Shown piece after piece: positions 39,170 through 53,216 of a DNA stretch of 64,000 nt. The position numbers and the translations under genes are program-made. This stretch comes from Nitrospira sp. Lineage in GTDB: Bacteria; Nitrospirota; Nitrospiria; Nitrospirales; Nitrospiraceae. The notes under the pieces are model-generated. The model worked only from the letters and a program-made list of their open reading frames with translations. It ran no database searches and was not told the DNA's origin. Location of the stretch: assembly GCA_024998595.1 (NCBI GenBank), contig JACOEK010000006.1:126433-190432 (forward strand). The letters are read 5' to 3'. The first letter of the stretch is position 1. Every line of letters starts with the position of its first letter.

Positions 39170-39943
39170 ATGCTGACATCCACGTTCGTCCATTTGAAAG
39201 GTATAGGACCCTCAACTGAGCGGCGTCTATGGGAGGACGGCATTGCCGATTGGGCAACGTTCCGACGGGAGGCTCAACTGATCGGCATCGCGCCCGCGCG
39301 TAAAGCCGCCTACGACGAAGAGCTGGCCCTTGCGCAGGACCATCTCGACCTCCATAACCCCCGCTATTTTGCAGACTGCCTGCACACTCGGGATCATTGG
39401 CGTCTGTTTCAGACCTTCGGTGCCCGGGCACTGTACCTCGACATCGAAACCACAGGGCTCTCGGCCCGCGAGGGACAGGTGACCATCGTCGGACTGCATC
39501 GCCAGGGGCACATGCGCACCTTGATCCAAGGTCACTCTCTCACACAGGAAGCCATTCAAGACGAACTTGACCAGGCCGACCTGCTCATCACATTTTTCGG
39601 AACGGTGTTCGATATGCCCTATCTGCAAACCTGCTTTCCAGGCTTGCGGGTGCCGATTCCGCATTTCGATCTCTGTTTTGCCGCTAGACGCGTCGGCCTG
39701 CAAGGCGGGTTGAAGTCCATCGAACGGGAATTGGACATCGCACGGGAATCGGATCTGCTCCAACTCGACGGATTGGAAGCCGTTCGATTGTGGCAGCGCT
39801 ATCGCGCCGGCAACGCCGCGGCCCTGGATCAACTCATCCGGTACAATGCGGCCGACACCCAGAACCTTGAGCCCCTCGCGGCCTGCCTGTACGAGCGGCT
39901 CACGTTGCGATACGGGCCGCGGTCGCTCGGTCTGGTTGAATAA
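39170..39943 (+). CDS. RNase H-like (DEDD) exonuclease-domain protein with N-terminal HhH
   Basis: HLKGIGP HhH; YLDIETTG, TFFGTVFDMPYL, HFDL, YNAADT. Confidence 0.85.
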   Translation: MLTSTFVHLKGIGPSTERRLWEDGIADWATFRREAQLIGIAPARKAAYDEELALAQDHLDLHNPRYFADCLHTRDHWRLFQTFGARALYLDIETTGLSAREGQVTIVGLHRQGHMRTLIQGHSLTQEAIQDELDQADLLITFFGTVFDMPYLQTCFPGLRVPIPHFDLCFAARRVGLQGGLKSIERELDIARESDLLQLDGLEAVRLWQRYRAGNAAALDQLIRYNAADTQNLEPLAACLYERLTLRYGPRSLGLVE

Positions 39944-39944
39944 C

Positions 39945-40751
39945 GTGGAGACTCCTCGCGGCAGGTGGGAATGGACAGGATACGGGCAGACTGACCGTGG
40001 ACTTGTCCGCTCAAGCAACCAGGATGCCTTCCTCGTCGACAACCGGCGCCGACTGTGGGCTGTCGCCGACGGCATGGGTGGACATCCCGGTGGAGACGTG
40101 GCCAGCCGGATTGTCATGGACACCCTCGCCGACTTTTCACCGAGCCTCATTCGCAGCGCCGTGCCCCCCGGCGAGGACCAAGGCGAACAGCAATCCTTTC
40201 TCCTCACGACCATGGCGGAGCAGGCCCATGCCGCCGTCCGCGCCTATGCCGATCATCACCCGCCCTTCTACGGCATGGGAACCACACTGGTGATGGCGCA
40301 TCTGCTCCCTGAGCCCACCCCCCGCCTCCTCGTTCTCAATGTCGGCGACAGCAGGGCATATCTCGTCAGAGCGGGACGCATCATCCAATTGACTCGGGAC
40401 CATACCCTCATTGACGATTATGTGCGCGACGGCCGTCTCACTCCTGAACAGGCCGCTCGCCATCCGGACCGGCACGTCCTGACCCGCGCGATAGGGCTTG
40501 GCCTCGTCCTGGACAGCGATCTTTTTACGTTCGAGGTCCTCACCGGCGACCTGCTGGTGCTCTGTTCAGACGGCCTCACTAAGATGCTAACCGACGAGCG
40601 CATATTGGAGATCGCTCACTCGCACAAAGACCATCCACCACTCGCGACCGGTGCCCTGATCCAAGCTGCGCTCGATGCCGGCGGCATCGACAACATTACG
40701 GTCGTGGCCTGCGCCATGACTGGTATGCCCGATCAGGGAAATATCCATTGA
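39945..40751 (+). CDS. PP2C-family Ser/Thr protein phosphatase
   Basis: TDRGLVRSSNQDAF, VADGMGGH, GMGTT, NVGDSRAY, LCSDGL, GGIDNITV. Confidence 0.93.
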   Translation: METPRGRWEWTGYGQTDRGLVRSSNQDAFLVDNRRRLWAVADGMGGHPGGDVASRIVMDTLADFSPSLIRSAVPPGEDQGEQQSFLLTTMAEQAHAAVRAYADHHPPFYGMGTTLVMAHLLPEPTPRLLVLNVGDSRAYLVRAGRIIQLTRDHTLIDDYVRDGRLTPEQAARHPDRHVLTRAIGLGLVLDSDLFTFEVLTGDLLVLCSDGLTKMLTDERILEIAHSHKDHPPLATGALIQAALDAGGIDNITVVACAMTGMPDQGNIH

Positions 40752-40777
40752 CACTGCCTCAAGGCACCAGGTAGCCT
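40748..40777 (+). promoter_or_regulatory. Sigma70 promoter upstream of the 40826 CDS
   Basis: TTGACA-N18-TAGCCT, overlapping the PP2C stop codon. Confidence 0.55.
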
Positions 40778-40825
40778 CAAGTCAGTGGCACTCGCAGAGG
40801 AGGCCTCCGGCCTCTGTTCACGTCT

Positions 40826-41737
40826 ATGAACGCACAACCGACTCACTATCGTCCATTTCATCTGATGGTTCGAACGTGGCTTCTACTGGGGCCGCTCGTG
40901 GGCATATTGTGCGTTCCTGCGTCGCGAGCCGAGGAACCTCGTGATCCCGAGGCAACCCTGCGCACGCTGGTTCAGGCGAATGCCGAACGGGATCTGGCCA
41001 CCATGTCGAAATACATGTCACACGATGTGGATGCCATCGGGTATACGATCGATGGACGCAAATACATCGGATGGCCGGATCTGGCGGCCGATATGCGCAG
41101 CGAGTTTGACTCGGTGGTCAAACTGGAAATTCCGATCACCAGTCTTCATATGTGGACCAAAGGCGATATCGCGTGGTTCGCCATGGAGTCGAACTATATT
41201 CGATACAGCAACCCGGAAGACCTTACCCAGCGGATGGTGCTCCCCCTCCGAGAAACAGGGGTCCTGGAGCGCCGGAACGGCCGATGGATCCTCGTGGGCT
41301 GGCACGAATCCACACGTCCGCATGATGGGGAAGCGACACAGACGGCCACAGACAGCGCGGCGCTGCTTCATCGCGCTTCGGATACGCAGCCGGCTGTCCC
41401 GAATGGCGTCGACCTGAGCGGCCAATGGGAAGTGACGGAAATCGAAGACAATAAGAAATACGTCGCCACCCTGGATGCTCAGGGCACCGGTCCTTACACG
41501 TGGCAGGGCGGACAGTTTTCCACCACCAGCTTCAACGATCGACGCTGGCAGGGCACGTGGAAACAAACGGGAAACGATCGCGAGGGCGCTTTTGAAGTCA
41601 TTCTCTCGGAGGATGGCACCGAAGCAAAAGGCATCTGGTGGTATGTGCGTGTCGGCACCAGAGACAATATCCCGCCCCGGCAACATGGCGGCAGCTATCT
41701 GTGGAAACGACTCACCCCGCCTCCGACGGCTCCTTGA
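40826..41737 (+). CDS. Exported SnoaL/NTF2-like domain protein with a C-terminal beta domain
   Basis: LVQANAERDL...YIGW...GDIAWF...RETGVLERRNGRWILVGWHES; second domain starts DLSGQW. Confidence 0.75.
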   Translation: MNAQPTHYRPFHLMVRTWLLLGPLVGILCVPASRAEEPRDPEATLRTLVQANAERDLATMSKYMSHDVDAIGYTIDGRKYIGWPDLAADMRSEFDSVVKLEIPITSLHMWTKGDIAWFAMESNYIRYSNPEDLTQRMVLPLRETGVLERRNGRWILVGWHESTRPHDGEATQTATDSAALLHRASDTQPAVPNGVDLSGQWEVTEIEDNKKYVATLDAQGTGPYTWQGGQFSTTSFNDRRWQGTWKQTGNDREGAFEVILSEDGTEAKGIWWYVRVGTRDNIPPRQHGGSYLWKRLTPPPTAP

Positions 41738-41812
41738 CGGACGGGCGGTACTTCCCTACAGCGCTTCACACACACTCACGGACGGCCGGTCTGTTACAAC
41801 GAGGAGGGGCCT

Positions 41813-42814
41813 ATGAATCGTGCGCTTCTATTGCTAGTCATGTTATTGGGCGTCACGAGTACGGTGTATGCCGGCGGCGGACACGATCACCACGCCATTC
41901 CAACGATGCCGAGTCTCGGCGAAACAAAGCTGACCATCGAGGACCAGACTGTTACGCTCACGTTCGGCCCAGTGGATCTCCCGACCGGCCACGACGGCGA
42001 CTTAGCCTCCAGTATGCCGAAGAAGGTGTTTCAGTTGCCGGAAGACACCTACATGATCGGCTACAAGTCCGAAGTATTCACGAAGGATGGCAAGCCGCTC
42101 CCGAAGAATTACCTGCATCACATCCTTATGTTGAACAATGACAAACCAAGCGTCTCGTGCGATGGAGAGCCCTTGTTTTTTGCCGGGGCCGGACTGGAAA
42201 TGACAGAAGCCCGTTTCCCGGAGGGGTACGGAGTGAAGTTGGGCAAAGGCCAGAACCTCATGTCCGTTGTGGCGTTTTACCACAAGGCCCCGCCGACGAA
42301 AGACGTGATGGCCCGCTTTACGATGTACGTGGCTCCAAAGGGCGCGAAGGTCCAGGAGATGGATGTCTACCAGGTGGGCGTGAACATCGTGTGCTACAGC
42401 AAATTTGCCCAGCGGGGCGCGGACCAGACTGACGAAGGCATCGAGATCAAGCCGGGAGTCTCAGTCCTATCCGCGCCTCTGAAATTCAACATGGATGGCT
42501 GCGTCAAATTCGCCTACCCTCACGGGCATGACGAGCTCCTCATGGTGGCACTTGAGAATAAGACCTCAAAGGAGACGCTCCTCCGCACCGTCCCCGAGGT
42601 CGATGCCGACGGCGCATTCCGGGATTTCCGGCCCCATCAGGTCTACCGTGATGGCAAAGGATTTTCGGTGACGAAACAGGACGACTACGAAATGGTGATG
42701 GTTCACCATCACCTTCTCCAAAACCCCAATACTCACCATGGTATGGGTAACTATCTGCTCTACATGACGCCTGGCGCTTGCCAGCAAACGTCCACTACTG
42801 CCTCGGCGCACTAG
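41813..42814 (+). CDS. Secreted putative copper type II monooxygenase-like (PHM/DBH fold) protein
   Basis: Signal peptide; H102-H103, FPEGYG...H157, PHGH (H237, H239), M311; His-rich mature N-terminus; GAGGAGG SD. Confidence 0.6.
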   Translation: MNRALLLLVMLLGVTSTVYAGGGHDHHAIPTMPSLGETKLTIEDQTVTLTFGPVDLPTGHDGDLASSMPKKVFQLPEDTYMIGYKSEVFTKDGKPLPKNYLHHILMLNNDKPSVSCDGEPLFFAGAGLEMTEARFPEGYGVKLGKGQNLMSVVAFYHKAPPTKDVMARFTMYVAPKGAKVQEMDVYQVGVNIVCYSKFAQRGADQTDEGIEIKPGVSVLSAPLKFNMDGCVKFAYPHGHDELLMVALENKTSKETLLRTVPEVDADGAFRDFRPHQVYRDGKGFSVTKQDDYEMVMVHHHLLQNPNTHHGMGNYLLYMTPGACQQTSTTASAH

Positions 42815-42830
42815 ACGGAACCTCCGGGCT

Positions 42831-42858
42831 CCCACCACAGTGCAAGTGCTGTGGTGGG
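42831..42858 (+). terminator. Hairpin after the 42814 stop
   Basis: Perfect 10-bp stem CCCACCACAG/CTGTGGTGGG; no U-tract. Confidence 0.45.
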
Positions 42859-43184
42859 CTACCGCCGTCCAGGCGTCAGCACAAACACGCTGGCCCGTCT
42901 CCGGACTCCGGTTCCCAATCCGAACACTTCTCACGACTCAGTGACAACGAATCTGGTCACTTTTTTCCGCTTCGAATCGTATCTCCCCTACGGAAGTGGA
43001 ACCGCCCCCTCAGGCGGCGGACTGGGATTGTCAAGAAGGTGTATGATATTGAACCAGTCATGCAGTTCAAGCGGTTAGGGAAGGACAGATTTGTTCGCCT
43101 AAGAGGGAGAGCATGTTCATCACTGTACGGTGGTGCATTCCCCGGGGCACACACAGCTACCGGGCGTATTGAGCGCGCCCCTGC

Positions 43185-46100
43185 ATGAAGGCCATGAGAT
43201 CCTCGATGTCCTTGCTCGAACCCTCGCTACATATCCTCCTCATCAATGAGAATCCCGACGAAATCAAGCTGGTGACGACCAGCTTGAGAAGCTTCTTCGT
43301 CGGCTGCCGCATCGAAGCCGGTTACTCGTCTGAAGATGCTCTTGCATTCAGCCGCCAGGGCGACTGGCATATCATCCTCGTTGATCAAGATCTCAATCCG
43401 GAACGGGGCCTCGAGCTGCTCGCACGCCTTCGCCGCAATGCCCCCTACGCCGCGATTCTGCTTCAGACCAACGAGAGTGACTCGCAAACTGCCGTTCAAG
43501 CGCTGCAACACGGAGCCGACTTTTTGCTGTTCAAACGATCTCCCGGCTTTATCACTGAACTGCTCTTTTCGGTACAGGAGGCTCTCGAAAAGCGCGACCT
43601 GCAAATGAAGCTGGACCACACGTTTCAGCGACACTTGCGCGTCATTGAAACATTAAGCGACCTATTGTACGAACTCGATGCGGAAGGTCGCTTTGTCTAT
43701 GTGAGTCCAACCGTCACCGTGATGCTTGGATATACCGCAGAGGAGCTGGCCGGACGACACTACTCCCTCTTGCTTCCTCCTCAACAGGAGCCAGCCGCCC
43801 GTTTCCGGTTGAACGAGCGCCGGGCAGGCAGCCGTTCGATACGCCAAGTGGAATACACTCTGTACCGCAAGCCCCTCCCGGATAGTCCGCCGGTACCCAT
43901 CATCGTAGAAGTGACGGCGAAGGGACTGTTCGATTCCACCAATCGTTACCTCGGAACCGTCGGATTGCTACGTGATCTTTCTCAGCAGAAGGCCCAACAG
44001 ATCCGCTTGGCTGAACTGGAGTCACGCCTCCAGGAGACCGACCGCCAACTGACCCTCTCGCGTGAAGCAGCCCGGGTCTCTCGCCAATTACAGCAGCCCC
44101 TGACGTCGTTGCTTCAGGACTCACAACGATTGCTGACGTCCATCCAACACAGCCGGATCGAGCAACATGTTGAAACGATGATCGCCCAGGCTTCGCAAGC
44201 GAGCCAACTCGGGCATCAACTGGCAGAAGCAATTCGCGCTCACCCCATAGAATTTGTGCCTCTCGACCTGAACGATGTACTTCAGACGGTTGTCCAAACT
44301 GCACAAGGTGAGGCAGGCGAATCCGGATTGCTGCTTGCCACTCATTTTGCAGGCAACCTTCCAATCATCCTCGGTTCGCGTTCAGCTCTGGAAAATCTTG
44401 CGCACATCCTGCTCACCTATGCCCGTCACTACACCGTCCAAAACATGCCTCATCGGCTCATCCTGCAAACAGCACCACTGACCATGGAAACCCGTGGGGC
44501 TATCCCGCAAGAAGTCACGCCACCCTCGCGGCATGTTCAGACGTATGCGAGCTTTACGATTCGGGGAAGGGTTGGCGATCTCCGCCTAGCTCCGGACAGT
44601 ACACAAGGTTGCGACCATCCGGCGGAGAGTTTGGTTCAAGCACATCAGATTGTTCAGGTGCATCGAGGCGCCCTCGAAGTCGAACATACACCGGACCGTA
44701 GTTTGGCCATCACAGTTCGCATTCCTGCTTCAGATGACCTCTCGCTCACACCTCAGCATCGTGAGTCACCGCCGCCACCAACCTCGCCTACCCAGTTCGA
44801 TGTACACTATCCCTCCCGGTACGTCCCCGGGCAACGTCATGAACGCCGCCGCTCAGAACGCAAGCCATTCTCCTTACCTGTACAGTTGTCGATCGGCGGT
44901 ACGACCCTTCGGGGCCTGTTGCGCAATATGAGTACCGAAGGGGCGCTCCTGACCATCCGGGGGATGGAGACGTCCATCCACCTTCAACCGGCCTATGTCG
45001 TCATCAAGACACCGGTGAGTTTCCTGGAACTGCAGGGCGTGGTGCATGAACGACCATCTGCGGGTTTGCCTCTACCAGCCATCAAAGAGTTCGTTATTGC
45101 TTTTGCCCTCGCTGTCGATCATGAACGCAATGTGCTCCGATCGCTGCTTGAGGGATTACAGGATGGTTCGCCACAGATCACCTTCGAAGGTTTGATTCTC
45201 CCTCCCTCCCTGGGGACAGTGGGCCCCACCACCGATCTCATGTCATCTCTGCCTATACCGGAGGACCGGCGGGAAGCCGTTCGACTCAGCATGTCCTGTC
45301 CCGTTCAGGTGGATGAATCCCAGGGCTCCCCGACGCGTTGGTTCGGCCTGATCGTAAACTTGAGCCTGGACGGGGCATGCCTCGAACTGCCTTCAGATGT
45401 CGTCTTGGCCGGACTTCCGCAAGTCATCCAGCTGAGCCTTGTGGAATCGATCGAAATACTCCCTCACAGTTCCCAATCGCAAGGCTCTGACCAACGATTG
45501 ACGGGGCATATCGTCTGGAGACGTGCTGCGGAAAGGACTCCCGCACCCTCGCTCGCCGCAACAGGAGAACAGATCGGTATACGCTTTGACTCATTGTCCC
45601 CCGCCCAAGAACAGAGACTTCGTGGCCTCATGGAACCTGCGTTCCACGCGGGTCAGGATCCCGCCGAACAGCAGTCTGACGCTCCCGTTCTTACCGTGCC
45701 GCACACCCTTCAAAATCGTGACGGGTATACGATTGCGTTGCGGCATGACTTCCCCGCACTAGGCGGCGGAGAGCATGATCCCCTGGTGCTCCTCTGCCCG
45801 GGATACGGCACGACGCAGCACGCCTACGTGGCCCTGGCGTATACGCTGGCCTGCCGCGGGTTTCATGTGCTGCGCTATGATCACAGCCGCCACATAGGGC
45901 TCAGTGACGGCGACCCTTCGCAGACCACCTTCACCTCTCTCGAAGACGACTTGGATGCAGTATTGACCTTCGCCCAAGACAATTGGCCGGAAAGGCCCCT
46001 CACTCTCCTGGCGCCGGACCTCCTCGGTCGAATCGCACTGCGAAGACGAGATTGGCACAGACGACTTCGTCGCCTCCTTCTGCTCAATCCGATACTCGAC

Positions 46101-47387
46101 CTCGGCCAGTGCCTCATCACCCTCCATCACCGAGATCTGCTGCGCGAACATCTCAGCGGCACCCGTCTCGGACTGGGCAATCTTTTCGGCATTCCACTCG
46201 ACATTGACCATTTCCTGGCCGATGCCGTTGCAGCACAATATACGGATGTCACGGCCCTAGAGGATGAACTCACACACTGCGGAACAATGGTGGTAATCCT
46301 CACCGCCGGACAAGAAAGCCCTGACTGTTCGATTCCCGCCCCTCCGTTGACGCTCTTAAATGAACTGATCGCTCGGCTGGGATCCAAAGGCAGGAAAGTC
46401 ATGCTACCGTCGTCTACATTGACCGCCGGCCAGGTTGCACCGCCGACCCTACGCGCCAGTTGGCAACAACTTGCGCACCTCTGCCAAGCAGGCCAGGCTA
46501 TTCACGAGCCTGGTGCCGTCATGCTTCCGGCGCTTGCACGCGCAATGTCCACCCGTGCTCGATTCGAGCGCGATCAACTCCGCCACAAACAGGCCATTGG
46601 TACCACGAGTTACCGACGGCTGTGGGCGGCGCAAACCGATCTCACTCGCGCACTCGATGAGTTGCCGGCGCATTGGCACTCTATCGATCAGCTCTATCAA
46701 CTGTTGCAGCCGCTTGACGGCAATCTTGCGCTCCTGGACATCGGATGCGGGATGCATTCCTTTGCCCGGCTGCTCCTGCTGAATCTTTCGTACCGCCTGC
46801 GCGCCCAAACATGGCACCATACCAAACCCCTCCGGTACGTCGGCATGGACTTCTCCGCTACCGCACTGCAGGCTGCACGAGCCTCGACAAAAGAGGCACT
46901 GCAACACCTCGACAAACTGTTTTCCGGACGCATCTCACCGCCCACTCCCGTCACCCAACAATGGGTGCTCGGCGCGTCTGTAGAAACGCTGCCCTTTGCG
47001 GACCGATCATTTGACCGTGTGGTGGCGAACCTCTCTCTCAGTTTTGCGCGTTCACCGATACACACGCTGCGAGAATTCTTCCGTGTTCTTCGCCCGGGCG
47101 GAAAACTTATCTTGAGCACCTTCACCCCTACCGCAGACATAGCCCGCCTCTACCGACCGGCCTTACATGAACTCGGCATCGACACTTTTTCAGGAGCGCC
47201 ACGTTTGGCCTTACACCGCATGGCGCAATGCTCTGTGGCATTACGTACAGGTCAATTACATACGTTTGAAGAGGATACTCTGAGCACCCAGCTTTCCCGC
47301 TTCACACCTGTTCCCCCACGACTCGTTCGCACGCTCTCCGGACAGATCATGCTCGCCGCCGCTGAAAAACCGGATTCCTCTAGCTGA
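43185..47387 (+). CDS. 1400-aa multidomain signalling enzyme: REC-PAS-degenerate HisKA/HATPase-PilZ-PilZ-LuxD-like alpha/beta hydrolase-SAM methyltransferase
   Basis: REC (D67, T95, K117); PAS (ELDAEGRFVYVSP...LGYTAEELAG); VSRQLQQPL at the H-box; two RxxxR plus NxSxxG pairs; GFHVLRYDHSRHIGLSDG; LLDIGCG...FADRSFD...VLRPGG. Confidence 0.85.
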   Translation: MKAMRSSMSLLEPSLHILLINENPDEIKLVTTSLRSFFVGCRIEAGYSSEDALAFSRQGDWHIILVDQDLNPERGLELLARLRRNAPYAAILLQTNESDSQTAVQALQHGADFLLFKRSPGFITELLFSVQEALEKRDLQMKLDHTFQRHLRVIETLSDLLYELDAEGRFVYVSPTVTVMLGYTAEELAGRHYSLLLPPQQEPAARFRLNERRAGSRSIRQVEYTLYRKPLPDSPPVPIIVEVTAKGLFDSTNRYLGTVGLLRDLSQQKAQQIRLAELESRLQETDRQLTLSREAARVSRQLQQPLTSLLQDSQRLLTSIQHSRIEQHVETMIAQASQASQLGHQLAEAIRAHPIEFVPLDLNDVLQTVVQTAQGEAGESGLLLATHFAGNLPIILGSRSALENLAHILLTYARHYTVQNMPHRLILQTAPLTMETRGAIPQEVTPPSRHVQTYASFTIRGRVGDLRLAPDSTQGCDHPAESLVQAHQIVQVHRGALEVEHTPDRSLAITVRIPASDDLSLTPQHRESPPPPTSPTQFDVHYPSRYVPGQRHERRRSERKPFSLPVQLSIGGTTLRGLLRNMSTEGALLTIRGMETSIHLQPAYVVIKTPVSFLELQGVVHERPSAGLPLPAIKEFVIAFALAVDHERNVLRSLLEGLQDGSPQITFEGLILPPSLGTVGPTTDLMSSLPIPEDRREAVRLSMSCPVQVDESQGSPTRWFGLIVNLSLDGACLELPSDVVLAGLPQVIQLSLVESIEILPHSSQSQGSDQRLTGHIVWRRAAERTPAPSLAATGEQIGIRFDSLSPAQEQRLRGLMEPAFHAGQDPAEQQSDAPVLTVPHTLQNRDGYTIALRHDFPALGGGEHDPLVLLCPGYGTTQHAYVALAYTLACRGFHVLRYDHSRHIGLSDGDPSQTTFTSLEDDLDAVLTFAQDNWPERPLTLLAPDLLGRIALRRRDWHRRLRRLLLLNPILDLGQCLITLHHRDLLREHLSGTRLGLGNLFGIPLDIDHFLADAVAAQYTDVTALEDELTHCGTMVVILTAGQESPDCSIPAPPLTLLNELIARLGSKGRKVMLPSSTLTAGQVAPPTLRASWQQLAHLCQAGQAIHEPGAVMLPALARAMSTRARFERDQLRHKQAIGTTSYRRLWAAQTDLTRALDELPAHWHSIDQLYQLLQPLDGNLALLDIGCGMHSFARLLLLNLSYRLRAQTWHHTKPLRYVGMDFSATALQAARASTKEALQHLDKLFSGRISPPTPVTQQWVLGASVETLPFADRSFDRVVANLSLSFARSPIHTLREFFRVLRPGGKLILSTFTPTADIARLYRPALHELGIDTFSGAPRLALHRMAQCSVALRTGQLHTFEEDTLSTQLSRFTPVPPRLVRTLSGQIMLAAAEKPDSSS

Positions 47388-47411
47388 AACAAAAGGGCGC
47401 ATATATACTTC

Positions 47412-47439
47412 ACTCACTAGCATAAATCGTGCAGTGAGT
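47412..47439. promoter_or_regulatory. Inverted repeat between the fusion gene and the kinase gene
   Basis: ACTCACT-a-GCA-taaatcg-TGC-AGTGAGT; function unknown (operator or RNA hairpin). Confidence 0.35.
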
Positions 47440-47493
47440 CAGGCGACACCACGGCAAACCTGGTGTCTGGATTGATATTCCCCCCACGGGACT

Positions 47494-48777
47494 ATGACGC
47501 TCCACCCGAACAACCGGCACATGCCCGTCCTTTCAGCATCCATGGATATCATCCGACTGATCGCGGACTTTGCTCACACTCTGGGATCTGCGAGGGATCT
47601 GTCAGTGCTCGGAGATCCAATTGTGGCGACCCTTTCGCAGTGCACCAGACTGCCCGAAGCGGCATTATGGATACGTGAGTCGGAGGAGGGTCAGTATCGT
47701 CTCCTGGTGTCTCACGGCCACAGCAATCCCTCTCCATTACCATCGACTTTTCCCGTTGGTCACCCGTTCGTCACAGCTCTTTCCCGGAAGCCATACGTGA
47801 TTCAGGCCGACCAAGAACGCTCCTCACCGACGTACTTGGCCATGACGACGGTCCGAGCAACCCTCTGTCTCGCACTACGGAACAAGGGACGACTCCTCGG
47901 GCTCTGCATCCTGGGTCCGCTCGGCATGGAAAAGCATCTCGACGAAGAGACCATGGCCATCGTTGAGACGATCGCGCACATCGCAGCCAACAGTCTCGAT
48001 CATTACTTGGCGCAAGACGACCTCCGCCGTTCGACCACGTTGATGCGACGGACAGATCGACTTCGTTCTTTGGAAATCATGGCCGGCGGGTTTGCCCATG
48101 AAATTCGCAACCCCCTCACATCCATCAAGACGTTTGTCCAGCTGGCCCCGCAACGGCAGCAGGATCCGGTCTTCATCAAAGAGTTCAGCAAACTGGCCAT
48201 AGAAGACATTCACCGCATCGAACGCCTGCTCCATGAGATTCTCGACTATGCCAGCTACATGACCCCTCGACCCACCGAGGTAGACGTGAACGAACTCGTC
48301 GCCTCCTGCATCGGCTTCGTTTCGTCGAGCGCGGCGCACCGCGGCATTCAATTACAGACTGATTTGTCACCTCAGCTCCCGCCGCTTTCGCTTGATCGTC
48401 AACAAATCAAACAAGTCCTGTTGAATCTGCTGTTGAATGCTCTGGATGCGATGCCGAACGGCAATGGAGTCATTCGGATCCATACGCGCCTCCTGACGCA
48501 GGCGGGCCGGCCGTCCTGTGTGCAATTGCAAGTCGAGGACGAAGGATGCGGTATCGCACCCGACCACCTCGAACATATTTTCGATCCCTTTTTCAGCACC
48601 AAACATTCCAATAGCGCCAGCGACGGAGCCGGACTCGGGCTGACGACCGCGCATCAGATTGTCAGGGAACATAGCGGCACCCTCACGGTTGAAAGCCGCG
48701 TGGGAGCGGGCTCCACTTTTTCCGTGAATCTTCCAGTTCCGGATACAGGCCTCACAGTGCCAGCAGCACGGGAGTAA
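47494..48777 (+). CDS. Soluble GAF-domain sensor histidine kinase
   Basis: N-terminal GAF-like region with no TM; AGGFAHEIRNPLTSIK, QVLLNLLLNA, DEGCGI, FDPFFSTK, GAGLGL. Confidence 0.93.
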   Translation: MTLHPNNRHMPVLSASMDIIRLIADFAHTLGSARDLSVLGDPIVATLSQCTRLPEAALWIRESEEGQYRLLVSHGHSNPSPLPSTFPVGHPFVTALSRKPYVIQADQERSSPTYLAMTTVRATLCLALRNKGRLLGLCILGPLGMEKHLDEETMAIVETIAHIAANSLDHYLAQDDLRRSTTLMRRTDRLRSLEIMAGGFAHEIRNPLTSIKTFVQLAPQRQQDPVFIKEFSKLAIEDIHRIERLLHEILDYASYMTPRPTEVDVNELVASCIGFVSSSAAHRGIQLQTDLSPQLPPLSLDRQQIKQVLLNLLLNALDAMPNGNGVIRIHTRLLTQAGRPSCVQLQVEDEGCGIAPDHLEHIFDPFFSTKHSNSASDGAGLGLTTAHQIVREHSGTLTVESRVGAGSTFSVNLPVPDTGLTVPAARE

Positions 48778-48778
48778 C

Positions 48779-50191
48779 ATGAAAAAACGAGTACTACTTG
48801 TCGATGATGAGCCGCGTGTCCGGGCCTCGCTGAGAACGGTGCTGGAACCGACGTATGAAATTCTCGAGGCGGCGGATGCTGCCGAGGGCCTCCGGAGTTT
48901 CAAGCACGATGCTCCCGATCTGGTCCTCCTGGATGTGATCCTGCCGGGAGCCGACGGTCTGTCCGCGCTACAGACAATGCGAACCGAAAATCGAGCCGTT
49001 CCGGTGATTATGCTGACCGGCACCAAAGCAGTGAAAACAGCCGTCGATGCCATGAAGCTTGGGGCCGCCGACTATTTGTCCAAACCATTCGACGTCGAGG
49101 AACTTCAGATTGTCATCGAGCGAACGCTGGGCAAGCAGGAGCTGGAGCAGGAAGTCCGTCAATTGCGCGCCCAGGTTGTGCAGCGATATGCCTTCCACAA
49201 CCTCATCGGCAAAAGCCCCTCCATGCAGGAAATCTATGCCAAAATCGAGCAAGTGGCCGATAGCCGCACAACCGTGCTGGTCACCGGTGAGAGTGGAACC
49301 GGAAAAGAACTGGTCGCGAAAGCGATTCACTACAACAGCGCCAGGCGCGAACGCCCATTCATCGCACTGAATTGCGCGGCCCTGCCTGAAACGCTCATCG
49401 AAAGCGAGTTGTTCGGCCATGAAAAAGGTTCGTTTACTGACGCCACGGCACGACGCGTGGGACAGTTCGAGCTGGCGCACACGGGCACGCTGTTTCTGGA
49501 TGAAATCGGCGACCTCAGTCCGGCAACACAGGCGAAGCTGTTGCGTGTATTGCAGGAACGGGAATTCACGAGAGTCGGTGGGGTCCAGTCCATCAAGGTC
49601 GATGTCAGGATCGTGGCCGCGACCAACAAAAACCTCGATGAGATGGTCAGAAAAAACCAGTTCCGCGAAGACTTGTACTACCGCATCAACGTGATTGCGC
49701 TCTACCTCCCGCCGTTGCGCGAACGAGGCGAGGATATTGCCCTGCTGGCTAAGCACTTTCTTTCGAAACGCATTGAGGAAGAAAAACGCCCCCCCCAGGA
49801 ATTCACCAAAGACGCACTCGAGTTGATTTCACATTATCCTTGGCCGGGCAACGTGCGCGAGATGGAGAACATCATCGAACAGGCGTTCATCTGGTCGAAA
49901 GGTTCCACGGTGATCACACCGGAGCATTTGCCGAACATTTTGCGGACCGATACCCGCTCATCATCCCTCCGGGATGACACCCTCGCCGGACGATTGTCAT
50001 TGGAAAAGGCCGTCATGGAGTTCGAACGCGAAATCATTCTGGATGCGCTCAAGCGAACGACATACGTACAAACTCATGCGGCCACCATGCTGGGAATCAG
50101 CCGTCGCATGCTGAAGTATCGCATGGACACCTTGGGAATCAGCAGGCCCGACAGCGGTGGGCAGGCCGAATCTCCATTGCCTCAGGAATGA
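48779..50191 (+). CDS. Sigma54-dependent response regulator (NtrC/AtoC family)
   Basis: REC domain; GESGTGKE, ESELFGHEKGSFTDA, LFLDEIG, FREDLYYR, WPGNVRE; C-terminal Fis HTH. Confidence 0.96.
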   Translation: MKKRVLLVDDEPRVRASLRTVLEPTYEILEAADAAEGLRSFKHDAPDLVLLDVILPGADGLSALQTMRTENRAVPVIMLTGTKAVKTAVDAMKLGAADYLSKPFDVEELQIVIERTLGKQELEQEVRQLRAQVVQRYAFHNLIGKSPSMQEIYAKIEQVADSRTTVLVTGESGTGKELVAKAIHYNSARRERPFIALNCAALPETLIESELFGHEKGSFTDATARRVGQFELAHTGTLFLDEIGDLSPATQAKLLRVLQEREFTRVGGVQSIKVDVRIVAATNKNLDEMVRKNQFREDLYYRINVIALYLPPLRERGEDIALLAKHFLSKRIEEEKRPPQEFTKDALELISHYPWPGNVREMENIIEQAFIWSKGSTVITPEHLPNILRTDTRSSSLRDDTLAGRLSLEKAVMEFEREIILDALKRTTYVQTHAATMLGISRRMLKYRMDTLGISRPDSGGQAESPLPQE

Positions 50192-50319
50192 CACAGGTTG
50201 GCACAGCAGGAGCTGCATCTGTCTCATATTGTTCACGGCCCAGCAGGCCACGCATCAAATATCTTGTGGCCTGAAGCAAAGAGACCTGCTATATATTGGC
50301 CGTTTCATGCACACATGAG

Positions 50320-50335
50320 CGGTACAGGTTTTGCT
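50320..50335 (+). promoter_or_regulatory. Candidate sigma54 (-24/-12) promoter
   Basis: CGGTACAGGTTTTGCT: GG-N10-GC with TTGCT at -12, 45 nt before ATG 50380. Confidence 0.5.
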
Positions 50336-50379
50336 TTTACTATTTCCTGAAGTTCGCAATGCACCCGGGAGCGCTCTGG

Positions 50380-51522
50380 ATGGGAACTCAGGCACCACCT
50401 GAACAGATCAGCCTAAAACCCTCGGTCCTGGTCGTCGATGATGAAACAGGCCCGCGGGACGCGCTGAAAGTTATTCTTCGCCCCTTCTTCACCATCCACT
50501 CAGCCGACAACGCCAAATCCGCGCTTCGGGTTCTGAAAGACCAGCACATCGATCTCATCACGCTGGATCAAAAATTACCCGACCGCCAGGGTATCGACCT
50601 GCTACAGGACATCAAGCAGGATTACGCAGACATCGAAGTCATCATCATTACCGGCTATGGCAGCCTGAAGTCGGCTATGGAAGGGATCCGGCACGGCGCG
50701 GCCGGCTATCTCCTCAAGCCGTTCAACGTGACCGAACTCATCACGCTGATCAACCAGACCTTGGAGAAAAAGCAGCGGCTGGACTACTTGCGATCGTTTC
50801 TGAAAACTTCGACCGCCTTGTGGGGCAACGAACAGGAAGTGGCGCAAGCGTGGAAGGATCTGCAATCGCACTACTTCGCGATCGGCAATGCCTCAACTGA
50901 ATCACATGGAAGTGCGGCGGACGTCACGGCGCTCATTCCATTGTTATCCGATTTGCTCGAAGCCAAGGACCGGCAGCTCCTCAACCATTGCAGCCGTGTG
51001 AGTTTCTATGCCTCGCTTCTCGCCAACCAGCTGACTCTCCCGCTACCCGATCAGAAGGCCCTGGCGCTGGGAGCCTTTCTCCACGATATCGGCAAGATCA
51101 GCCTCTCCAATTATAAGTACTCCGCGGATGATGATGAGAACCTGAAAACCAACACCCATTCGAGGGAGTGCTTCGAAGCGGGAGCCCGGATGCTGTTACC
51201 GCTCGGATTCCAGGCCGAGGTCGGACAAATCGTGGCTTATCATCAAGAACGCTTTGATGGTGTCGGCAACCCACATGGGCTGGAGGGCGAGGGCATCCCG
51301 ATTCTGGCACGTATCGTCGCCATTGCACAGGCATTCGACAACCTGACGGTAGATATGCCTGGGCACCAACCGACCTCCATCGATGAGGCTATTCGACAAA
51401 TCTTACTGCAGGCCGATACATACTTCGATCCCAAGCTGACGGAGCTCTTCGCTCAAGTGGTGCGGGAATGCAAGTCTTCTCTGCCGGCGCTCGCGATTGC
51501 CAAAACCTCGCCGACGAACTGA
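50380..51522 (+). CDS. Response regulator with a degenerate HD-GYP-like domain
   Basis: REC (VVDDE, LDQKL, LLKPF); NHCSRV, LHDIGK, YHQERFDGVGNP, IAQAFD; GGGAG SD before 50380. Confidence 0.88.
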   Translation: MGTQAPPEQISLKPSVLVVDDETGPRDALKVILRPFFTIHSADNAKSALRVLKDQHIDLITLDQKLPDRQGIDLLQDIKQDYADIEVIIITGYGSLKSAMEGIRHGAAGYLLKPFNVTELITLINQTLEKKQRLDYLRSFLKTSTALWGNEQEVAQAWKDLQSHYFAIGNASTESHGSAADVTALIPLLSDLLEAKDRQLLNHCSRVSFYASLLANQLTLPLPDQKALALGAFLHDIGKISLSNYKYSADDDENLKTNTHSRECFEAGARMLLPLGFQAEVGQIVAYHQERFDGVGNPHGLEGEGIPILARIVAIAQAFDNLTVDMPGHQPTSIDEAIRQILLQADTYFDPKLTELFAQVVRECKSSLPALAIAKTSPTN

Positions 51523-51530
51523 TCCTTCCG

Positions 51531-53216
51531 TTACCGCCGATCCTTCGCGCTCGCAATCATGTCAGCCGCCGCCGCCCGCGCATTTTTGGTCACCGTCACG
51601 CCCGCCAACATCCGCGCTACTTCGGCTTCCTGTTCGTCCGGGCTCAGTAACCGGACCTGCGTTACGGTTCGATTGTGTCGAACCTGCTTTTCCACGAGGT
51701 AATGCGCATGTGCTTGAGAGGCCACCTGGGGAAGATGTGTGACGCACAACACCTGATGGTGTCGACTGAGACTCCTGAGCCGCGCGCCCATCACCTCTGC
51801 GACCGCCCCTCCGACACCGGCATCCACTTCATCAAAAATCAGGACCGGCACTCGATCGCTCTCAGCCAGAATCGTTTTCAACGCGAGCATGACCCGAGAC
51901 AATTCTCCTCCCGAGGCCACCTTGGCCAGCGGCTTGAGCGGTTCCCCCGGATTCGCTGAAAACACGAACTCTACCGTATCCTGACCTGTCTGACTAAAGG
52001 GTGCATCACCCGACAGGCGCGAGACCTCCACCCCAAAACGGGTCCGCTCCATACGGAGTGCGCCCAATTCCTTCATCACCTGAACCGTTAATTTCTTGGC
52101 CGCTTCAAGCCGCTTGCGAGACAGACGCTCTGCAACATCGCGTAGGCTGAACGCCCCTTTCTCGACCGCGCGCGTCAACTCCTGCAGGTGGGTGCCGGCA
52201 TCATCCAGTTGGGCCAGTTGAACTCGCAGGGACTCCTGTAAAGTCAGCACGGCATCGAGCGAGCCCCCATATTTTTTTATCAGTCGATGTAACCGGTCCA
52301 GGCGCTGCTCAATCTCCAGCAATCGGCCAGGATTGGCCTCTACTTGATCGCGGTACCGGCGAACTTGCTCAGCCAGGTCCCTCAATGGAACGACCGCGTC
52401 ATCCACGGTCTTGGTCCATTCAATCGTCGTGGCATCGACCGACTCCATTCTGGATGTCAACTTGCGGGCACCAGCCAGCAGACTTAACACTCCTTGGTCG
52501 CCTGCGTAGAGCATCTCATGGAGTTGGTCAGACAACTCACCGAGTTGCTGGCTGTGCATCAACCGTGGACGCTCCTGGTCAAGCCGGACATCTTCGCCTG
52601 CCTCGATTCCCGCATCTGTAATCTCCTGGAACTGAAACCGCAGCAGATCCTCCCGTTCGCGACGCTGCGCGATCTGTGCAGTCATGGATTCCAGTTCGGC
52701 CACCCGGTCCTGCCAATGTTTATGCGCGATGTGATAGTCCTGCCGGAGTGCGTGAAGCCTACCGAATGCGTCCAGCGCGTCCATTTGGGCAGAAGGCGAC
52801 AACAGCGATTGCTGTTCGTGTTGTCCGTGCACGTCGACCAACGCGCCGCCCAGTTCTTCCAGAAGGTGGACCGGGCAGAGGTTACCGTTCAGATAGGTCC
52901 GGTTGCGACCCGTGCGTGAGATGACTCGCCGAATGAGAATATCCGTCTCGCCGGCGCGCGCAAAGCCCTTGCTCTGTAGCAACTCAAGAAGGGGATGGTC
53001 CGGAGTCAGCACACAGGCGGCTTCAAGCTCGGCTTCTTCGGCCTGAGCCCGAATCTGATCGGTAGAAGCACGACCTCCGACCAGAAGGGTGACCGCATCG
53101 ATGAGGAGGGATTTTCCGGCGCCGGTTTCACCGGTAAGCACAATGAAACCGGCGCCAAAGGTGACGGCCAGCTGCTCGATCACACCAAAATTCGAGATGC
53201 GCAGCTCGGTCAGCAT
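51531..53216 (-). CDS. recN: DNA repair protein RecN
   Basis: LTGETGAGKS, VDVHGQH, ASGGELSR, LIFDEVDAGVGG, VTHLPQVA. Confidence 0.97.
   Translation of the reverse strand: MLTELRISNFGVIEQLAVTFGAGFIVLTGETGAGKSLLIDAVTLLVGGRASTDQIRAQAEEAELEAACVLTPDHPLLELLQSKGFARAGETDILIRRVISRTGRNRTYLNGNLCPVHLLEELGGALVDVHGQHEQQSLLSPSAQMDALDAFGRLHALRQDYHIAHKHWQDRVAELESMTAQIAQRREREDLLRFQFQEITDAGIEAGEDVRLDQERPRLMHSQQLGELSDQLHEMLYAGDQGVLSLLAGARKLTSRMESVDATTIEWTKTVDDAVVPLRDLAEQVRRYRDQVEANPGRLLEIEQRLDRLHRLIKKYGGSLDAVLTLQESLRVQLAQLDDAGTHLQELTRAVEKGAFSLRDVAERLSRKRLEAAKKLTVQVMKELGALRMERTRFGVEVSRLSGDAPFSQTGQDTVEFVFSANPGEPLKPLAKVASGGELSRVMLALKTILAESDRVPVLIFDEVDAGVGGAVAEVMGARLRSLSRHHQVLCVTHLPQVASQAHAHYLVEKQVRHNRTVTQVRLLSPDEQEAEVARMLAGVTVTKNARAAAADMIASAKDRR

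Follow-up and report, generated by a model that had tools for sequence, protein, structure and literature searches.

A LuxD-like hydrolase fold without its catalytic triad, fused to a methyltransferase fold in a Nitrospira signaling protein: a candidate regulatory pseudoenzyme

In the 64,000-nucleotide stretch of Nitrospira sp. DNA analyzed here (GenBank assembly GCA_024998595.1, contig JACOEK010000006.1, positions 126,433 to 190,432; hereafter the window), the open reading frame (ORF) at 43185-47387 on the forward strand encodes a 1400-aa protein, P0001, which joins N-terminal signaling domains to a C-terminal module composed of a LuxD-like alpha/beta-hydrolase fold and a methyltransferase fold, and which we term the hub protein. 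An earlier note on this DNA had singled out the part at 45696-47129 (aa 838-1315 of the hub protein) and suggested that a dead hydrolase domain hands a lipid to the methyltransferase, yielding a methyl ester signal. We propose, at a probability of about one-half, that the module is instead a pseudoenzyme with a regulatory or ligand-binding role in a hub responsive to cyclic di-GMP (c-di-GMP) and phosphorylation and that it makes no methyl ester. What points to this reading is a set of losses in its lineage, namely, those of the catalytic triad, of the methyltransferase residues invariant in the active relatives, and of the seven-transmembrane (7TM) region of the adjacent kinase.

The likeness of the first half of the module to LuxD is well beyond chance. 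The Pfam family of LuxD, Acyl_transf_2 (PF02273), matches aa 839-951 with 28.4 bits against a gathering cut-off of 20.3, the match being limited to positions 4-115 of the 294 in the profile, and together with Hydrolase_4 it spans aa 839-973. LuxD itself (PDB code 1THT) is the top phmmer match among PDB sequences (E 1.3e-7). In an AlphaFold2 model of aa 830-1400, the hydrolase part has a predicted local distance difference test score (pLDDT) of 70-90, and Foldseek against the PDB again ranks LuxD first (E 1.6e-14; template modeling score of 0.81 on the target; 308 columns). The structural search, which had been suggested as a check, thus leaves the domain with LuxD and does not assign it to an unrelated hydrolase family. 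With the NCBIfam LuxD model, by contrast, the score of 30.5 bits comes nowhere near the 420 demanded of an equivalog.

The triad of LuxD, which we take to be numbered Ser114, Asp211, and His241 (a numbering consistent with the residue-by-residue alignment of an intact paralogue, described below, to 1THT), is no longer intact in the hub protein. The phmmer alignment places IGLIAASLSARVA of LuxD opposite LTLLAPDLLGRIA of the hub protein, with Ser114 matched to Asp945, which in the AlphaFold2 model is the first helix residue after strand beta5, i.e., at the nucleophile elbow. A homology search recovered 59 proteins that match P0001 in length and domain content and share 35-95% identity with it over aa 830-1400, all from Nitrospira wherever a name is given. 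In the set of 60 orthologues used throughout, position 945 is Asp in 58 and Asn in the other 2, within the motif A-[PS]-D-L-x-[GA]-R. The position of His241 is never His in this set, and that of Asp211 is occupied by Asp in 25, Glu in 17, Ala in 9, and Gly in 6. Both the replacement of the nucleophilic Ser by Asp and the absence of a triad His had been read correctly from the window by the earlier note.

The module belongs to a family that is undescribed and unnamed. A two-domain profile of 571 positions, built from the window's clade, so that the window's own match is by construction, retrieved 173 proteins below E 1e-30 from 1.84 billion cluster representatives, and most of the family matches listed cover nearly all of its positions. 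No source yielded a specific name, cluster look-ups and a second homology search returning generic labels such as "methyltransferase domain-containing protein"; no NCBIfam model for the family stands among the matches listed (for the hub protein, the top 25 out of 70; for two Ser-type relatives, all of them); and the only plasmid matches in a tblastn search were generic methyltransferases and the LuxD of a lux plasmid. Likewise, no published description of the hub architecture was found in the literature searched. A further search for loci with the Ser-type alignment used methyltransferase motifs as its patterns, and about 10 of its 80 loci are true modules, most of the others being unrelated methyltransferases.

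We classed 125 full-length modules by the residue in the nucleophile column. The Ser-type (78 modules) retains a His in every case, 68 times at the aligned column and otherwise within a few residues of it, and its proteins are mostly of 1000 aa or less. The Asp-type (28 modules) has no His at the aligned column, and its proteins mostly exceed 1300 aa. The Gly-type (15 modules; mostly >1000 aa) has the aligned His in 4, and the Asn-type (4 modules; 877-1296 aa) in 2. Throughout the 28 Asp-type representatives the elbow Asp is fixed, Arg949 is invariant or nearly so, the position of Thr1080 is never His, and the acid is not conserved. Ser-type modules occur as stand-alone proteins of ~560 aa or with one or two PilZ domains, and in many of them a START/SRPBCC-type domain (PF03364 and PF10604) replaces PilZ. 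Those from named genomes, all metagenome assembled, belong to Nitrospirales, Opitutae (Verrucomicrobiota), and Omnitrophota. Many Omnitrophota members of 700-730 aa (e.g., P0145, P0148, P0248, and P0253) carry a START/SRPBCC (Polyketide_cyc) domain ahead of the module and no PilZ domain.

In a maximum-likelihood tree, the Asp-type modules form one clade, save for a stray member (P0089), and this clade lies inside a grade made up of long REC-PAS-PilZ proteins with Ser, Gly, or Asn at the nucleophile position. Given this nesting, Asp is a derived state, and it arose where the hydrolase was probably already dead. This bears on the idea that Asp945 is a true nucleophile of an active hydrolase of another kind, as in the haloalkane dehalogenases and epoxide hydrolases, alpha/beta hydrolases that employ an Asp in this role. 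The location of an Asp exactly at the elbow, in 100% of the Asp-type representatives, is what one would expect of such an enzyme. However, the base His is missing from every representative and orthologue, the acid position is variable, the residue two positions beyond the Asp is a Leu and not a small residue, and the clade emerged from a Gly/Asn grade that was probably dead already. The missing His, the variable acid, and the descent via Gly or Asn forms led us to reject Asp945 as a working nucleophile, and we hold this alternative to be extremely improbable.

The fate of the hydrolase is paralleled by that of the kinase encoded with it. Wherever the DNA beyond a module gene could be read (21 of 21 loci), the gene is followed, in most cases immediately, by one for a kinase that belongs to a single family; these kinases share 23-47% identity with the window's GAF kinase in other lineages and 70% within the window's genus. 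In the 12 loci with a Ser- or Gly-type module (L003, L004, L007, L008, L010, L011, L014, L088, L089, L092, L093, and L095), the kinase is invariably of 700-1000 aa and has a HisKA_7TM region, whereas in the 9 Asp-type loci (the window, L084-L087, L090, L091, L094, and L097) it is invariably a soluble GAF protein of 425-431 aa, with no room for a 7TM region. Outside this tally stand L009, where the module gene and the kinase are separated by an HD-GYP gene; the P0089 locus, where no kinase was called; and L096, whose contig ends too soon. L092 is instructive: its flanking genes are those of the window, its hub has Gly at the nucleophile position and keeps the methyltransferase motif intact, and its kinase, of 724 aa, has a 7TM region.

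In some loci, genes intervening between the Ser- or Gly-type hub genes and their kinases offer a hint regarding the chemistry of the active members. They encode a PilZ-aldehyde dehydrogenase fusion (L095:9730-11847), a PilZ-TENA/THI-4/heme-oxygenase-like fusion (L096:5239-6573), and a TENA/heme-oxygenase-like protein (L093:11026-12090). The fatty-acid decarboxylase UndA is a member of the TENA/heme-oxygenase-like superfamily, and the fatty acyl reductases are related to the aldehyde dehydrogenases. These neighbors suggest a c-di-GMP-gated pathway to a fatty-acid-derived compound, and, taken with the fusions to START-like domains and the complete triad of the LuxD type, they argue for lipid-type chemistry. 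Purely by analogy, we infer that the Ser-type proteins act as acyl hydrolases or acyltransferases coupled to a methyltransferase and make a hydrophobic product to which the neighboring 7TM-GAF kinase responds, in many cases with c-di-GMP in control.

The genome to which the window belongs encodes a protein of this kind. An active LuxD-like gene elsewhere in the genome had been named as something to look for, and a PF02273 search of the genome gave two matches in total, both fused to a methyltransferase, one of which is the hub protein. The other, on a different contig (L001:337-3135, in contig 6 of G000), encodes 933 aa, with a pair of PilZ domains ahead of the LuxD-like and methyltransferase folds, and the module itself occupies L001:1429-3135. 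It scores 85 bits over PF02273 profile positions 20-253 and shares 30% identity with the hub protein over aa 722-1395 of the latter, from the second PilZ domain to the C terminus (E 4e-83). Its ATSLAGR, AEQDAW, and GALHRL motifs align with Ser114, Asp211, and His241 of LuxD, so that the triad is intact. The gene directly after it (the pair spans L003:8208-14051) encodes a kinase of 1002 aa in which a HisKA_7TM region is joined to GAF, HisKA, and HATPase domains; the larger neighboring ORFs that were scanned include no response regulator. We regard the two as a candidate lipid-signal synthase/sensor pair. The paralogue is present in 4 of 4 sampled genomes of the window's genus and is absent from the sister genera, and in most of the Nitrospiraceae genomes sampled the Asp-type occurs without any Ser-type copy. 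The Asp itself was confirmed directly in four genomes of other genera (L084-L087) and in one more genome of the window's own genus (L090). As most genomes with the Asp-type lack a Ser-type copy, the Asp-type module does not depend on the product of the paralogue, and the idea that it senses that product is weakened on the same ground.

The fusion to a methyltransferase, also part of the earlier claim, was borne out. Methyltransf_11 and related Pfam models match aa 1173-1324, and the AlphaFold2 model of aa 1125-1400 has a class I fold with a pLDDT of 88, a value reached once Ser-type sequences were joined to the input (30-60 in a run with 12 sequences). Foldseek with this model retrieved generic small-molecule methyltransferases, with no pointer to a substrate. 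We then took the columns whose conservation in the Ser-type is 90% or higher and examined them in the Asp-type, giving residues as the Ser-type consensus in P0001 numbering. In its hydrolase part, the Asp-type no longer has Glu876 and Lys878 of the ETK motif or the nucleophilic Ser, Asp1044, and His of the triad, and its methyltransferase part has lost Tyr1150, Tyr1287 (Phe in 93%), Lys1314, Glu1353, and Phe1360. P0001 itself has Thr, Gln, Glu, Gln, Phe, Thr, Leu, and Thr at 876, 878, 1044, 1150, 1287, 1314, 1353, and 1360, respectively. Going by the usual class I layout, the lost methyltransferase positions would fall where substrate is bound: on the helix at the N terminus, immediately beyond strands 4 and 5, and within the lid. 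Of the elements of the S-adenosylmethionine (SAM) site, Gly1191 (the third Gly of motif I) is retained in 33% and Asp1222 in 63% of the Asp-type. The Asp-type has, in turn, invariants of its own: Trp934, Asn968-Pro969, Trp1260, and His1359.

Several syntenic orthologues of the hub gene have gone further. All of them retain the elbow Asp, Arg949, and the RYD.x.H.G.SDG motif; however, the strand-2 Asp is replaced by Gly in that from L086 (VIGLGHS), and the SAM motifs are eroded in those from L087 (LMDVEVGLG and MIGVGRS) and L091 (VVDAGIAQSDT and LMGLGRS). Since these genomes still hold the gene and its cluster, the role of the cluster cannot require methyl transfer everywhere. In a further genus, the module gene at G083:C23:244906-246558 has one in-frame TAG and may be a pseudogene.

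Two points weigh against the proposal of a pseudoenzyme. First, LDxGCGxHSF and YVGxDF hardly vary among the 60 orthologues of the clade to which the window's copy belongs, down to 35% identity, with Gly1187, Cys1188, and Gly1189 in 60/60 and Asp1222 in 58/60 (Glu in 2/60). As the motif is invariant there, a SAM-type site may still be at work in this lineage, for some methyl transfer or for the sensing of SAM. Second, the contact between the hub and the kinase is deduced from a single line of evidence, the conserved gene order.

The first of these points gives some room to two alternatives. One is the synthase of the earlier note, in which the dead hydrolase fold binds acyl-acyl carrier protein (ACP) or a fatty acid and presents it to an active methyltransferase, giving a diffusible fatty-acid methyl ester. 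It accords with the invariance of SAM-type motif I and the strand-2 Asp in the window's clade, with the confidently predicted methyltransferase fold and the retained LuxD-like fold, with the kinase and regulators encoded after the hub gene, and with the lipid-related fusions and neighbors of the Ser-type relatives. Nevertheless, the Ser-type invariants around strands 4 and 5 and the lid have been replaced, orthologues lacking the SAM motifs keep the gene and cluster, the partner kinase has neither a membrane region nor any other obvious lipid-sensing part, and, with no thioesterase step, the free acid would have to come from elsewhere. We therefore consider this alternative unlikely for the window's copy, where the losses in the active site, in the 7TM region of the kinase, and in the SAM motifs of orthologues tell against it; the gene context on which it drew does fit the Ser-type relatives. 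The fallback offered with it, that of a lipid sensor, comes closer to the pseudoenzyme that we favor than the synthase does.

The other alternative is a methyltransferase gated by c-di-GMP and phosphorylation that acts on a new protein or small-molecule substrate, the hydrolase-like fold being left with a regulatory or dimerization role only. The SAM motif conserved in the window's clade, the clade-specific Trp1260 and His1359 within the methyltransferase fold, and the sensor domains upstream, as are found in regulated output enzymes, are all in keeping with it. Yet the sister-genus orthologues lack the SAM motifs, and Asp945 and RYDHxxHxGxSDG are more widely conserved than the SAM site, which argues that the hydrolase-like fold is the indispensable part. 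We hold such an enzyme to be possible but doubtful.

A further alternative is that the module is a decaying relic without function, carried along by the N-terminal sensor domains. The whole protein does evolve fast (between genera, 31-35% of its residues are identical, compared with 83% in the sigma-54 regulator encoded nearby), enzyme motifs are eroding in several lineages, and the G083 copy has its in-frame TAG. However, the module is full length in all 9 Asp-type loci and all 28 representatives; Asp945, Arg949, Trp934, and Trp1260 are invariant or nearly so; and the 60 orthologues match P0001 with a mean identity of 0.66 in the hydrolase fold and 0.72 in the methyltransferase fold, comparable to the first PilZ domain (0.72) and above both the second (0.42) and the dead kinase core (0.56). 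With its two folds conserved to this degree, the module is under purifying selection rather than drifting freely, and a functionless relic is very unlikely.

The N-terminal part of the hub protein (Table 1) would supply the inputs of a pseudoenzyme. Its REC domain retains the phosphoacceptor Asp67 along with Thr95 and Lys117, which are conserved in the orthologues, and both PilZ domains retain the c-di-GMP signature (RxxxR and [D/N]xSxxG), conserved across genera, so that they are apparently competent c-di-GMP sites. Between them and the PAS domain lies a degenerate histidine kinase core, in which the phospho-His position is Arg300 (VSRQLQQPL); neither HisKA nor HATPase_c has a Pfam match in the hub protein, and no ATP-binding domain was detected in it. 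Orthologues of genus g2 still read SHELHTPL or SHDIQTPL at the phospho-His site, and the N-box Asn for ATP binding is retained in no lineage. Judging from these residues, the decay of the kinase core is stepwise and differs from genus to genus.

Taking these observations together, we propose the following for the hub protein, a cytoplasmic one, as a pseudoenzyme. The module descends from fused enzymes, a LuxD-like acyl hydrolase or acyltransferase and a methyltransferase, encoded directly upstream of a 7TM-GAF kinase. In the Asp-type lineage, the hydrolase has lost its Ser, its His, and a fixed acid, the methyltransferase the invariants of its active relatives, and the kinase its membrane sensor. 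The hydrolase would thus be incapable of turnover, and the site for the ancestral substrate of the methyltransferase would have been remodeled. The folds were retained, probably along with the acyl pocket and the SAM-type pocket, and would serve in binding a ligand, the neighboring soluble GAF kinase, or both. The state of the module would be set by the two PilZ domains through c-di-GMP and by the REC domain through phosphorylation, probably by the GAF kinase, which would in turn relay the output to the REC-HD-GYP protein and the sigma-54 regulator.

One can tentatively go a step further and view the whole family as a system of lipid-derived signaling in Nitrospirota, Verrucomicrobiota, and Omnitrophota, consisting of a c-di-GMP-gated synthase and a 7TM-GAF receptor kinase. 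In the Asp-type, the synthase might itself have turned into an intracellular receptor, its dead LuxD-like pocket binding an acyl-type ligand and communicating its state to the kinase, with the kinase shedding its 7TM region in consequence. This broader scenario is speculative, but, if true, it would be a switch from enzyme to receptor within one conserved gene cluster of a key nitrifier.

The hub gene lies in a conserved order of genes that was seen in three Nitrospiraceae genera and several metagenome contigs: peroxiredoxin, an RNase H-like protein, a PP2C phosphatase, a SnoaL-like protein, a 333-aa secreted protein, the hub protein, the GAF kinase, the sigma-54 regulator, the REC-HD-GYP protein, and recN on the opposite strand. 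The nine-gene neighborhood from the RNase H-like gene to recN occupies 39170-53216 of the window and recurs at L084-L087, L090, L091, L092, and L097. At the identities given above, the hub protein is its fastest-evolving member. The secreted protein (41813-42814), for which no Pfam match was obtained, is always encoded directly upstream of the hub gene and, with 70-91% identity across genera, is far better conserved than the hub protein. The REC-HD-GYP protein has YHQERFDGVGNPHGL in place of HHE...GYP and is thus probably not an active c-di-GMP phosphodiesterase.

Table 1. Coordinates in the window of the hub gene, its domains and key residues, and the regulatory genes that follow it
Feature	Position	Strand	Basis and remarks
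Hub gene	43185..47387	+	1400 aa: REC, PAS, degenerate kinase core, PilZ, PilZ, LuxD-like fold, methyltransferase fold (ORF list, translation, Pfam)
REC domain, aa 17-118	43233..43538	+	Pfam Response_reg, 44.8 bits
PAS domain, aa 152-264	43638..43976	+	Pfam PAS, 40.6 bits
Degenerate histidine kinase core, ~aa 290-520	44052..44744	+	Sole match is weak, to AtoS (NCBIfam)
PilZ domain 1	44838..45179	+	Pfam PilZ (two stretches); RRxxxR is RRRSER, NxSxxG is NMSTEG
PilZ domain 2, aa 694-816	45264..45632	+	Pfam PilZ best stretch; RxxxR is REAVR, plus NLSLDG
LuxD-like alpha/beta-hydrolase fold without catalytic triad, aa 835-1101	45687..46487	+	Pfam, NCBIfam, phmmer against PDB, AlphaFold2, Foldseek
Asp945 codon (GAC)	46017..46019	+	Nucleophile elbow; replaces LuxD Ser114
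Glu1044 codon (GAA)	46314..46316	+	Position of LuxD Asp211
Thr1080 codon (ACC)	46422..46424	+	Position of LuxD His241
Helical linker, aa 1102-1172	46488..46700	+	Invariant Glu1128; model secondary structure, conservation
Class I methyltransferase fold, aa 1173-1395	46701..47369	+	Pfam, AlphaFold2, Foldseek
Motif I, LDIGCGMHSF	46734..46763	+	Third Gly of GxGxG is His1191
Strand-2 acid, Asp1222	46848..46850	+	
Partner kinase, GAF-HisKA-HATPase	47494..48777	+	Pfam; soluble, 427 aa, no 7TM; 42-45% identical to kinases beside Ser-type genes
Sigma-54-dependent response regulator	48779..50191	+	Pfam; 83% identical across genera, same position
REC-HD-GYP response regulator	50296..51522	+	Pfam; degenerate (YHQ for HHE, GNP for GYP); syntenic in all loci

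Nitrospira oxidizes nitrite in soils, waters, and treatment plants, and the regulation of its life in biofilms is little known. The conserved nine-gene neighborhood defined here has at its center a 1400-residue hub in which two c-di-GMP sites appear competent and four domains of enzyme type are degenerate. Beyond Nitrospira, the occurrence of the family beside a 7TM-GAF kinase in three phyla marks it as a candidate source of a new class of lipid-derived signals. The contrast of Ser- or Gly-type modules with a membrane kinase and Asp-type modules with a soluble one provides a testable case of an enzyme becoming a regulatory pseudoenzyme together with its partner.

Comparisons with known systems help to place both the active and the dead versions. 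In the fatty-acid reductase system of lux, LuxD acts as the myristoyl-ACP thioesterase/acyltransferase. The hub protein has in common with it the RYD..H.G.S.G motif and the xxNuLxxR motif of the elbow, and the Ser-type relatives, including the paralogue, also retain Ser114, Asp211, and His241. The hub protein differs in having Asp for Ser114, Thr for His241, and Glu or a variable residue for Asp211, in matching only the N-terminal 115 positions of the profile and scoring far under the equivalog cut-off, and in its fusion to a methyltransferase and signaling domains. The lux context is also missing, with no luxC or luxE near the hub gene, where the neighbors are signaling genes. In Ralstonia, PhcB is the synthase of a methyl 3-hydroxy-fatty-acid signal and adjoins its sensor kinase in the PhcS/PhcR system; it is described with a methyltransferase domain only, and a hydrolase domain is not mentioned (PMC8578825, PMC6989110). 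The methyltransferase fold of the hub protein similarly adjoins a histidine kinase and response regulators, the comparison with PhcB being by description and by the generic class I fold only, and the Ser-type relatives with their 7TM kinases look like such a pair. Unlike in the Phc system, the kinase of the window is soluble and the hub module lacks the residues conserved in its active relatives. No PhcB-named family appears among the NCBIfam matches listed, which comprise the best 25 of 70 for the hub protein and all of them for two Ser-type relatives.

Gene pairs of an autoinducer synthase and a membrane sensor kinase are exemplified by CqsA/CqsS and LuxM/LuxN, and the arrangement of a Ser-type enzyme gene beside that of a multipass membrane histidine kinase, recurring across phyla, resembles them. 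The chemistry of the enzymes is different, many members of the present family have PilZ or START-like domains, and the window's version has neither the active enzyme nor the membrane sensor. With the haloalkane dehalogenases and epoxide hydrolases, the hub protein shares the elbow Asp but not the catalytic His or a fixed acid, and its clade derives from Ser-type acyl hydrolases via Gly or Asn forms. A further set of alpha/beta-hydrolase folds have shifted in function to binding and serve as noncatalytic regulators or receptors, among them DPP6 (Ser to Asp), DPP10 (Ser to Gly), ABHD5/CGI-58 (Ser to Asn), GID1, and the neuroligins. These are unrelated and all eukaryotic, whereas the fold in the hub protein is fused to methyltransferase, second-messenger, and phosphorelay domains; however, the same three replacements of the nucleophile are seen in the long forms of the present family, with the fold likewise retained. 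By this analogy, such noncatalytic alpha/beta-hydrolase-fold proteins are the closest functional counterparts of the hub module.

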